A stretch of 64,000 bases of DNA, taken from Octopus vulgaris (taxonomy: Eukaryota). Where the stretch lies: the NCBI GenBank assembly GCA_951406725.2, contig OX597824.1, positions 97,526,001 to 97,590,000 of the forward strand, in the 5' to 3' direction. The position numbers and the translations under genes were made by a program. The notes under the pieces were generated by a model. The model did not search any database, was not told the DNA's origin, and saw only the letters and a program-made list of their open reading frames with translations. How positions within the stretch are numbered: the first letter of the stretch is position 1; every line of letters begins with the position of its first letter. This document shows, in pieces, positions 10,761-61,530 of this stretch.

Positions 10761-11402
10761 ATATCGGTATTTACTTATAGCCTACAACTAAATCAATATT
10801 GTATAATTACAGCCATCGATCACAAAACAGGGTTATTTCCGATATGCAATGATTTACTGAGATTGGTGTTTCTTCAAACGAAGGAACATTGAGGTTTCAC
10901 TTGCCATTTGTTCGTCTTGGAGTATCTAAACATGGTTCTTACTGGACCAAGTGAAGGTGTCCTGCCCATGGCACTTCAACCGGTTGTAAACCTTAATTAA
11001 ATCTCAAATAGCGCCACTTTCCGTCCTGAGAAAATGAAATAGAATTTTATATTCTCGTGTTCTAGATGGATCTTTTTGTTTTCTAAATAAGGATGGAGCG
11101 GTCATTACTGAAGCAAGTTGTTGATCTTATACGGGATTAATCAGGATTAACCAGGGTTAAGCAATAACAACAACGGTATTTGTAAGATTATTCTGACGGG
11201 CATTTAAGTAGAGTCTGACATTGTTAGACAAATAGGCGCAGGAGTGGCTGTGGAGCCAGAACTTTGCGTCCAAACCCGTGGTATTTTTGGCAAGTTACTT
11301 CTACTATGGCCAGGAGCAAACCAAAGCCTTTTGAGTGGATCTGATAGACAGAAACTGAAAGAAGCCCATTGTATGTATGTATGTATGTATGTATGTATGT
11401 AT

Positions 11403-11865
11403 ATATCGGTACTTCGTTGTACCATTTATTTACTTTTATATGTATAATTTTACCCTTACGGGCTATCTTTTACTGGAAAGCAATACTTTCGTATTGCATT
11501 ACTATTTTCATTGAAACTTCTTCACTGTTCTCGTTCTGTTAACGTCTTGGCGTTCAGACGAGTGTACTGGCATAGATGTGGCAACATTTGAAATTTTGTC
11601 TAGGTATATGCAGCTGATGAAGACAAATCAAATCTACGTTGTCAAACGTATTTGAAAAGTCTGAAACCGGTCCTGCATTATCCGTTTCTAGGTTTTTCAT
11701 TTTTCAGATGTTCTTCCTAGAGGTAAGACAAATTTTTTTCATGTTTGTTGCACACACACGTCTTTGCTAGTATATACGCAGTGAAGCTATACAATAGCGT
11801 CGTATTTATTACGATCGCTATTTTCCAGTAAATATCGGTACTTCGTTGTACCATTTATTTACTTT

Positions 11866-11872
<7 letters not shown>
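11403..11872 (+). mobile_element. Non-coding HHR-bearing element (retrozyme / Penelope pseudo-LTR-like): 429-bp unit with 41-bp terminal direct repeat
   Basis: ATATCGGTACTTCGTTGTACCATTTATTTACTTTTATATGT is identical at 11403-11443 and 11832-11872. A central hammerhead motif is present, there is no ORF, and the flanks are (TATG)n and (TA)n. Confidence 0.75.
11608..11678 (+). ncRNA. Type I hammerhead ribozyme (minimal stem III)
   Basis: Stem I is ATGCAG(11608-13)/CTGCAT(11673-78). The core is CTGATGA (11614-20). Stem II is AGAC/GTCT, with an inner hairpin TCAAA..TACGTT-GTCA-AACGTA-TTTGA. GAAA is at 11663-66, stem III is the palindrome ACCGGT, and the cleavage triplet is GTC (cut after 11672). 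Confidence 0.85.
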
Positions 11873-11918
<46 letters not shown>

Positions 11919-58849: not shown

Positions 58850-60297
58850 GCCTTAGTACACTACAAGATAGGACCCCTCCTCCAAAAGGATGGCTTCCTC
58901 ACAGACAGTACAACTAATATCAGTGAGATACTGAATGACCAGTTCAAAAGTGTCTTTGCCACCCCGTTGGAACACAGACAAGTGAACGAACCAGTGGACT
59001 TCTTTGCCGCCTCACCTATAACCAGCGAGGCTGTTACAATGGAATTCATTGACATTAGCGAAAAAGATATATTTTAGCTATAGATGAAGTGGATACAAAC
59101 ACAACTGCTGGTCCTAATGGTTTCCCAGGTGGATCATGGTATGATATGCCACAAACTGCGTGACCTTGGCATAGCTGGAAAACTTGGAGAGTGGTTACAT
59201 GATTTCCTGAAAGATAGGAGTCAGGCAGTAGTGGCTAATGGAGCCACCTCTATGAACACTCAAATAGTGAGTGGTGTTCCACAGGGCACTGTCTTGGGAC
59301 CACTGCTTTTTATAGTGGCCCTCTCAGATATGCCCTCAAATGCCCGGATAGCCACCCTTGCAAGCTATGCAGATGATACGAAAGTCTCGCAGAAAATACA
59401 GAACCTCAGTGATGTTGCACACCTGCAGCAGGAGTTGGATTCAATTTACAGATGGGCTGAGATAATAATATGCAGTTTAATGCTGAAAAATTCCAAGCCC
59501 TGTACTGCCAGCATCCAAAACTGAATATGAAACTTACAGGGTACCCCGGTCCAAAGGAAATTTCAATCCCAGACCCTAATTCTGTGAGGGACCTGGGTAT
59601 CGACATGAGTGATGATACCTCTTTCCAAGTGCACATTACCAGGATGACGACAAAGTGCAGACGACTGGCTGGATGGATCCTAAGAACATTCAGAACTAGA
59701 GATAAGGAAACTATGACGGTCCTCTGGCGGACATTCGTCCTCAGCCGCCTGGATTACTGCTCACAGCTATGGTCACCCACCAGTGTAAAATTAACAGCAG
59801 ACCTTGAAGCAATCCAGAGAAGATTCACAAAGATCGTCTTTTTGCAACAGCTCAGCTACTGTGAAAGGTTGAAACTGCTAAGACTCTACTTCCTGGAGAG
59901 AAGACGGGAGAGGTATGCAGTAATATATATTTGGAAGATCCTGGAAGGAATTATGCCAAATTTTGGCATTGAAATCTACACCAATGCCAGAACGGGACAA
60001 CACTGCATAGTGTCAAAGGTCCCAGCAATGCCATCACGCTTCAGGACCAGTTACTTCAACAGCCTGGGTTTCAAGGGATCACAGCTTTTTAATATTCTCC
60101 CAAAGAGTCTGAGGAACTTGCACAAAGTAGATGTAGCGGTTTTTAAATCAAAGCTGGACATCTTCCTGTTGAGAGTCCCAGATGAACCTACCTCACGGCA
60201 AGTGCCACATATTAGAGGAGGCTCTTACTAATAACAGTGTAGCAAAACGGCAGTGCTTCAGCATGGCCGCAGCTCTGAGATGTAACTAGAGAGAAAA

Positions 60298-60300
<3 letters not shown>
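58850..60300 (+). mobile_element. 5'-truncated, internally deleted CR1-group LINE (RT pseudogene plus 3' UTR)
   Basis: IGPLL..SEILNDQFKSVF..AGPNGFP is joined directly to VDHG (~59128; early RT subdomains deleted). It continues SGVPQGTVLGPLLF, YADD (59366-77), RDLG, LDYCSQLWSP, LERRRERY and VPDEP, with frameshifts and a stop. Confidence 0.95.
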
Positions 60301-60353
<53 letters not shown>

Positions 60354-60578
60354 ATGTATATTATATATATCTATATATCCATATTTATATATTTTATATA
60401 TATATATATATATCTTAAATATATTTATATATATATATATTTATATCTTATATATCTACATGTATATATATATTTATATCTTATATATCTACATATATAT
60501 ATATTTATATCTTATATATCTACTTATATATATATTTATATCTTATATATATATATATATATTTATACCTTATATATC

Positions 60579-60626
<48 letters not shown>

Positions 60627-60700
60627 TATTTATTGCTTATATATCTACATATATATATATATCTTATATATACATATATATATATTATATATATATATAT

Positions 60701-61481
60701 CTTATTTTTAATTCTAGTTTCAGCTCAGAGTTGGCCATGCTAATGCACTGCCGTTTTGTGCTACACTGTTATTGCGAAGAACCTCGTCTAATATGTGGCA
60801 CTTGGTGAAGAATGGAGTTTGCCGTGAGGTAGGTTCATCTGGGACTCTCGACAGGAAGATGTCCAGCTTTGATTTAAAAACAGCTACATCTACTTTGTGC
60901 AAGTTCCTCAGACTCTTTGGGAGAATATTAAAAAGCTGTGGGCCCTTGAAACCCAGGCTGTTGCAGAAGCTGGTCCTGAAGTGTGATGGCATTGCTTGGA
61001 TCTTTAGCACTATGCAGTGTCGTCCCGTTCTAGCATTGGTGTAGCTTACAATGTCAAAATTAGGCACAATTCCTTCCAGGATCTTCCAGACAAATATTAC
61101 TGCATACCTCTCCCGTCTTCTCTCCAGGGAGTAGAGTTTTAGCTGTTTCAACATTTCCCAGTAGCTGAGCTGTTGCAAAGAGACGATCTTCTTTGTGAAT
61201 CTTCTCTGGATTGCTTCAAGGTCCGCTGTTAATTTTACACTGGTGGGCGACCATAGCTGTGAGCAGTAATCCAGGCGGCTGAGGACGAATGTCCGCCAGA
61301 GGACCATCATGGTTTCCTTACCTCTGGTTCTGAATGTTCTTAGGATCCACCCAGCCAGTTGTCTGCACTTTGTCGCCATCCTGGTAATGTGCACTTGGAA
61401 AGAGGTATCATCACTCATGTCGATACCCAGGTCCCTCACAGACTTAGACTCTGGGATTGAAATTCCCTGTGGACCGGTGTA
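60701..61481 (-). mobile_element. Second CR1-group LINE 3' fragment of the same family, in inverted orientation
   Basis: The ORF at 60720-61439 (RDLGIDMSDDTSFQVHITRM..LDYCSQLWSP..VPDEPTSRQ) is nearly identical to 59470-60231 and has the same 3' UTR. Confidence 0.95.
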
Positions 61482-61530
61482 TATATCTTATATCTTATAT
61501 ATATTATATATATATATATATATACCTTAT

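Follow-up and report, generated by a model that had tools for sequence, protein, structure and literature searches.

Metazoan non-LTR retrozymes, as described in the accessible portions of two studies (PMC7229834; bioRxiv 10.64898/2026.07.22.740005), are non-coding units of 150-450 bp with a GC content under 50% and one type I hammerhead ribozyme each, which occur as head-to-tail copies, are predicted to form a strongly self-paired circle, and coexist with Penelope elements (PLEs). The literature presents them as proposed non-autonomous PLE dependants: mobilization by PLEs was proposed in 2020 (PMC7229834) and argued in 2026 from co-occurrence and phylogeny (bioRxiv 10.64898/2026.07.22.740005), and insertion-end mapping appears in neither source within those portions. 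PLEs themselves show partial tandems, an inverted 5' arm, a tail at one end and microsatellite targets, marks that are absent from LINE-type TPRT according to the accessible text of Craig et al. 2021 (bioRxiv 10.1101/2021.04.23.441226). The tail is reported to be common and unique to PLEs, and in vitro it is the stretch between two internal start sites of reverse transcription (PMC11167929, available part). What the hammerhead contributes to PLE-type transposition is described as unclear in the available parts of this literature.

The octopus repeat family described here shares the retrozyme traits listed above, and by its sequence it is a new family within this known class. The nearest case in the portions of those sources available is a mussel family with a 350-390 bp unit. 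The octopus family differs from the metazoan retrozymes described there in being mostly dispersed, with no long arrays found, and in having a helix II far longer than 4 bp. The words octopus and cephalopod do not occur in PMC7229834, and the 2026 retrozyme sample holds no mollusc in the accessible part of the preprint (bioRxiv 10.64898/2026.07.22.740005). Our searches of the open literature found no description of such a family in octopus.

The copy first noticed lies on the forward strand of a 64,000-nucleotide stretch of Octopus vulgaris DNA (the window, whose numbering we use unless a locus is named). As first annotated, the 41-mer at 11403-11443 recurs unchanged at 11832-11872 (41/41, the exact length of the identity), giving a repeat period of 429; extension to 11446/11875 gives 43 of 44 matching bases. 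The full 429-nt non-coding unit, the retrozyme monomer, occupies 11403-11831 (unit position 1 = 11403), and copies elsewhere in the family pass from 429 to 1 unbroken. The segment 11832-11875, also on the forward strand, begins the next unit, holds the second 41-mer, and runs to the main fixed 3' end of the family (unit position 44, the exact end of 122/217 aligned arms), so that the copy at 11403-11875 represents 1.1 turns of the unit. Between the two fixed 3' sites lies a 65-nt tail segment (unit 45-109; 11447-11511, forward strand), internal in the 11403-11872 copy and terminal in others, with a predicted hairpin at about 11479-11496. The unit has a GC content of 35% and a fold z-score of -9.65, with none of 100 shuffles equally stable. 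Seven ATG ORFs of 45-78 aa overlap the repeat region and only those of 48 and 45 aa are fully internal; no meaningful ORF is present, in keeping with the first-pass annotation. The copy is flanked by a (TATG)n/(TA)n run at 11371-11402, which is the end of a common dispersed repeat with very high depth in DNA contigs, and by a (TA)n run at 11876-11913; neither run is assigned a strand. Nothing at this locus hints at a host function; as a locus it is an ordinary insertion. Rfam miRNA and snoRNA matches fall on microsatellites and were discarded. Elsewhere in the window, two facing open frames of ~255 aa at 59461-61487 resemble, by eye, the ends of LINE reverse transcriptases.

The unit carries a type I hammerhead at 11608-11678 (forward strand) with a 2-bp palindromic helix III, and its stems, core, long base-paired stem II and predicted cut site are those of the first-pass annotation. 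Stem I pairs ATGCAG (11608-11613) with CTGCAT (11673-11678) over 6 bp, the core comprises CTGATGA (11614-11620) and GAAA (11663-11666), and helix II has 11621-11624 paired to 11659-11662 at its base, with a paired extension beyond. Helix III contains the palindrome ACCGGT, and an extra base precedes the G10.1-C11.1 pair. PLE hammerheads share the extra base and the palindromic helix III in the accessible parts of the sources, PMC4209133 among them; the 6-bp helix I sets the octopus ribozyme apart from PLEs, being that of canonical and not of minimal hammerheads. Self-cleavage is predicted between 11672 and 11673, after C11672 (unit position 270), and across the family an excess of 5' ends falls on the counterpart of base 11673 (unit 271). 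The cleavage base, base 17, is C in 133, A in 40, T in 3 and G in none of 177 arms, and the NUH rule permits C, A or T at this base.

In Rfam, the best hit is Hammerhead_HH9 at 11600-11692 (27.2 bits, E = 0.0012), below the gathering score of 52; the Hammerhead_1 model put forward earlier is absent from the output of this search, which keeps the best clan member only. The bare core pattern occurs six times in the window against 3.55 expected, not above chance; the hammerhead call rests on the stems and on family-wide conservation. In 37 arms chosen by a pattern outside the ribozyme, variation in the core and stem I was 1.9% (16/833), compared with 6.0% elsewhere (563/9375, p = 5e-8). Two hammerheads cofold with a 6-bp intermolecular helix III at -43.5 kcal/mol, versus 2 x -20.2 kcal/mol for the separate molecules, which supports the dimer-type helix III proposed at first reading; a double-hammerhead form has been described for this ribozyme class. 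At least three more diverged hammerhead families share an ACCGGTC helix III, grouping as L031, L032, L036, L038, L043, L044, L049, L051, L059 and L060; L035, L047 and L050; and L045. In L035, a 335-bp repeat runs through the ribozyme.

Exact matches to three short patterns numbered 93, 268 (a single 20-mer) and 233, with no matches to reversed controls, and BLAST with the unit returned 2070 first-look candidates, of which the best 40 were scored. The family therefore has at least several hundred dispersed copies, bearing out the annotation of a multi-copy, ORF-less hammerhead unit and disposing of a single-copy locus, one of the outcomes that it had named as contrary. Related sequence is present in contigs of runs labelled as four organisms. 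We mapped 197 loci, comprising the 30 best BLAST matches, 60 of the 93 ribozyme-pattern matches, 66 and 35 new loci from the first 100 matches listed in each of two exact-pattern searches, and 6 hand-picked loci. After removal of the duplicates L160, L259 and L260 and of repeated L085 arms, the census of ends covers 261 arms at 194 loci. No contig bridging an empty insertion site was found among the contigs examined.

The copies are mostly dispersed insertions of 0.3-1.9 units with variable 5' ends and two fixed 3' sites 65 nt apart. Among the 261 arms, 171 have short 3' ends (unit 32-52, mostly 44), 60 have tail ends (85-113, mostly 109) and 30 have others; a TA repeat adjoins 198 of the 231 standard ends. 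Sixty-eight arms are longer than one unit, overshooting by 1-412 bases, and none of 272 arms reaches two full units. Copies beyond one unit exist, as anticipated from a circular intermediate; long tandem arrays, also anticipated, were not found. Free circular permutation is rejected because the 3' ends are fixed and only the 5' ends vary. The overshoot varies by copy, and what is truly fixed in the family is the pair of 3' sites; the 41-bp terminal redundancy highlighted in the first-pass annotation is an arbitrary overshoot. It is not a designed terminus, the fixed 3' end lying instead at 11875, and since the overlap is element sequence of variable length, it is neither an LTR nor a target-site duplication. 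We likewise rejected a plant LTR retrozyme, which would carry a type III hammerhead within a pair of LTRs together with a PBS, a PPT and a 4-bp TSD, since the fold is type I and the family has no fixed LTR. Nor does the perfect 41-mer say much about a recent insertion, as had been suggested, because mismatch within insertions is only 4% per site family-wide.

The arms also form 54 head-to-head pairs, 38 of them with two standard ends, and in 36 of these 38 one short arm is joined to one tailed arm (19 expected, p = 3e-9). We identify this short-plus-tail signature as the Penelope tail mark; the family thereby combines a one-end tail, inverted 5' arms and a microsatellite target. The first annotation, whose reading of the unit as retrozyme-like is supported, had missed this tail and inversion signature. 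LINE insertions commonly show a fixed 3' end, a truncated 5' end and microsatellites at their ends, and LINE ORFs are frequent in the flanks of the copies, as they might be if the unit were SINE-like and a LINE, RTE or similar, moved it by priming on its AT-rich end. We regard such an origin as very improbable: the literature gives the short-plus-tail rule for PLEs but does not give it for LINE TPRT, copies exceed one unit, and no tRNA-like head is evident by eye.

The genome contains an intact young PLE family encoding a 781-aa protein (RVT_1 plus GIY-YIG), with 64 scored matches, most of them 94-99% identical. A CxxxCxxC motif precedes the nuclease, which points to the Neptune/Nematis type; PLEs of this type resemble the octopus retrozyme family in partial tandems, inverted 5' arm, one-end tail and microsatellite targets, as far as the available sources go. 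Copies of the 781-aa family have 22 short and 8 tail ends, and all three of its inverted loci are mixed. Because the end pattern of the retrozyme matches that of this autonomous family, PLE enzymes likely mobilize the 429-nt unit. The unit differs from PLEs in having no ORF and a tail of 65 nt, compared with 30-40 nt in the accessible part of the Craig et al. preprint (bioRxiv 10.1101/2021.04.23.441226). In the young PLE family, at L127:143-1582 (G000:C6 near 112994300), a 479-codon open frame directly follows the tail and overlaps, in a different frame, the first part of the RT-nuclease ORF; this endonuclease-bearing PLE would thus have an ORF1, possibly with a frameshift. At L124:1233-4362, a 1.2-kb inverted repeat of 99% identity lies beside a retrozyme copy, and its long ORFs are weakly PLE-like (E = 4e-4) with putatively Naiad-like motifs.

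Copies might instead be the fixed ends of a Penelope ORF, as the first-pass annotation had itself cautioned. None of the arms at the 197 loci continues into an ORF; long arms always continue into the previous unit, and among 145 free 5' flanks a single pair shares junction sequence, which is a common repeat. Alignments of the unit to nine PLE 3' regions were no better than shuffles. Of 30 full-length PLE loci, 29 lack the unit and the remaining one carries it as a separate inverted insertion, and a partner search by a short-helix-II hammerhead pattern found only the shared ribozyme core. Since copies never enter an ORF and the nine PLE 3' regions lack homology, an ordinary pLTR is unlikely. 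A related proposal takes the unit for the pseudo-LTR of an unsampled autonomous Penelope, or for something derived from it by deletion, and its copies for 5'-truncated stumps. It draws on several pLTR traits of the unit (the tail, the inversions, the targeting of TA and the additional base ahead of helix II), on one PLE family here whose helix II is similar at its base and whose helix III is likewise ACCGGT, and on genome searches that score the best candidates only. Li et al. also find retrozymes related to pLTRs in the available portion of their preprint, where Xenopus retrozymes are often pLTR-like (bioRxiv 10.64898/2026.07.22.740005), unlike the octopus unit, for which we found no pLTR homology. 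Against this proposal, long arms enter the previous unit and have no shared 5' flank, any PLE ORF near a copy lies on the opposite strand or has a hammerhead and TA run of its own at its end, and the core pair is C3-G8 where adjacent PLE families have U3-A8. We judge it improbable; the unit may nonetheless descend from a now-diverged pLTR or from an unsampled or extinct parent. The pLTR hammerheads of several PLE families read TTGA-N-AA, with U3-A8 for C3-G8 (L121:5575-5610, L019, L111, L113 and L122). Chlamys elements such as MRC1 (Craig et al. 2021, accessible part) are similarly non-autonomous, pLTR-forming, head-to-tail and PLE-moved; they generally resemble autonomous 3' ends and mostly lack a hammerhead, whereas the octopus unit has one and resembles no sampled PLE.

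How copies longer than one unit arise bears on the form of the RNA template. Of 625 subfamily-diagnostic cells compared between the two rounds of an insertion, 45 disagree where 260 would be expected, and the redundancy is therefore copied from a template of one sublineage. Mismatch is 4.1% between rounds within an insertion, 4.3% between opposite arms, and 8.3% (median) between loci; the nearest-neighbor median is 2.1%, itself a minimum over many noisy pairs. The agreement of rounds at diagnostic sites implies that the redundancy is reset each generation or that each subfamily has a homogeneous master. Subfamily-matched rounds fit a circular or monomer template, and given that no long arrays were found, redundancy would come most simply from a circle, or from a cut monomer copied by an end-to-end jump; a religated circle and tandem DNA are identical in sequence. 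Circle folds of eight copies gave z-scores of -5.9 to -11.6 (12 shuffles each). At 21 predicted pairs with polymorphic sites, about 10 stay paired, mostly by G-U exchange, and 11 are broken, so that covariation lends the rod little support.

The same element and enzyme could also work with no circle, through SINE-like linear read-through of multi-unit loci with some transcripts cut once. Two complete hammerheads occur in five arms (the 11403-11872 locus has one), PAc accepts uncut RNA in vitro (PMC11167929, available part), and the 631-632-nt arms L018, L085 and L088 stop at the second-turn cut, as would a linear RNA cut at its first hammerhead. On the second turn, 3 of 10 arms stop at this cut, all three carrying C there, and the raised stop rate is better explained by linear cut multimers than by a closed circle. 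Yet linear copying only shortens, and arms beyond one unit are common with none reaching two; rounds agree at diagnostic sites across subfamilies; and most of the commonest recurrent mismatches affect CpG sites, with position 5 changed in both directions. We therefore hold an exclusively linear route to be unlikely, and both kinds of template, circle or jump and linear multimer, may be in use.

If the ribozyme cuts the template in vivo, some insertions may begin at the cut. In two samples that had not been chosen for covering the ribozyme, 5 of 64 5' ends map precisely to the base that follows the predicted cut (unit 271), compared with 0.28 expected under a uniform null (p = 1e-5), and they are uneven between samples (4/28 and 1/36, the latter with p = 0.15). 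In a genome-wide scan of TA-flanked junctions, 6 of 12 fall at the base after the cut, and none falls in the 20 bases upstream of unit 271 except one at 268. Ends also gather elsewhere: position 103 has four and 101-104 six, and in TA-flanked scans TA-like sites hold 6/13 at 277 and, with one unrelated match left out of the counts, 6/15 at 194-196. The A variant at the cut (23%) yields a 2-base TA microhomology. On balance, in vivo cleavage is the probable cause of the excess at the cut. Hypermutation at a ligation junction is not claimed: position 270 has the most changes (15, in a tree of 134 arms), but other polymorphisms reach 13-14 and the tree is poorly resolved. Two individual loci bear description. 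The L085 insertion is locally triplicated, and one of its arms is joined at unit 221 to an inner copy that begins at 272, just past the cut. In L226 (G000:C1:14003005-14003056), a copy starting at the cut is preceded, inside the TA run, by a 7-base duplicate of its first bases, resembling an aborted first priming.

In the accessible text of Frangieh et al. (PMC11167929), no reads start or end at the PLE hammerhead cut and cleavage is dispensable in vitro, in contrast to the enrichment of octopus genomic 5' ends there; the available part of the 2026 preprint reports that 8 of 9 predicted Xenopus retrozymes lack cleavage in vitro (bioRxiv 10.64898/2026.07.22.740005). R2 elements with HDV-like ribozymes (PMC3774820, available part) likewise have a ribozyme cut at the 5' junction of inserted copies, but R2 is autonomous and rDNA-specific, uses another ribozyme, and has the cut as its full-length end, whereas in octopus the cut marks a minority of ends. 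Our searches of the open literature found no report of insertion ends at hammerhead cuts.

Our preferred reading, to which we assign a probability of about 0.7, is that this is a non-LTR retrozyme family whose RNA is predicted to cut itself, is likely circularized, and is likely copied in trans by PLE enzymes into (TA)n. The hammerhead RNA would cut itself and then likely close into a circle, a PLE reverse transcriptase-endonuclease would nick (TA)n, and reverse transcription would start inside the RNA at unit 44 for one target end or 109 for the other. Copying would run backwards and stop at a variable point, in a minority of cases at the ribozyme cut. It would often cross the ribozyme site and the unit boundary, and because it passes both, the template should be continuous there, as a circle, an end-to-end jump or an uncut multimer. 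Two-hammerhead loci would be a source of new monomers. A more specific version is tentative, and we put it at somewhat under even odds: that these insertions are a genomic fossil record of a cut and religated 429-nt circle, without kinship to its helper, captured by a PLE enzyme that primes off either end of a nick in TA at two fixed internal sites, and with the cut kept as a stop in germ-line insertions.

The family-wide statistics of insertion ends make the proposed mechanism directly testable, with three exact test points on a short RNA (priming at each of unit positions 44 and 109, and cleavage following 270), and the intact young PLE in the same genome permits a direct in vitro test like that of Frangieh et al. 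If the more specific version is true, the ends at the cut would be direct evidence for in vivo cleavage by animal hammerheads of this class within a transposition template, and PLE enzymes would move viroid-like circles by structure and not by shared sequence.
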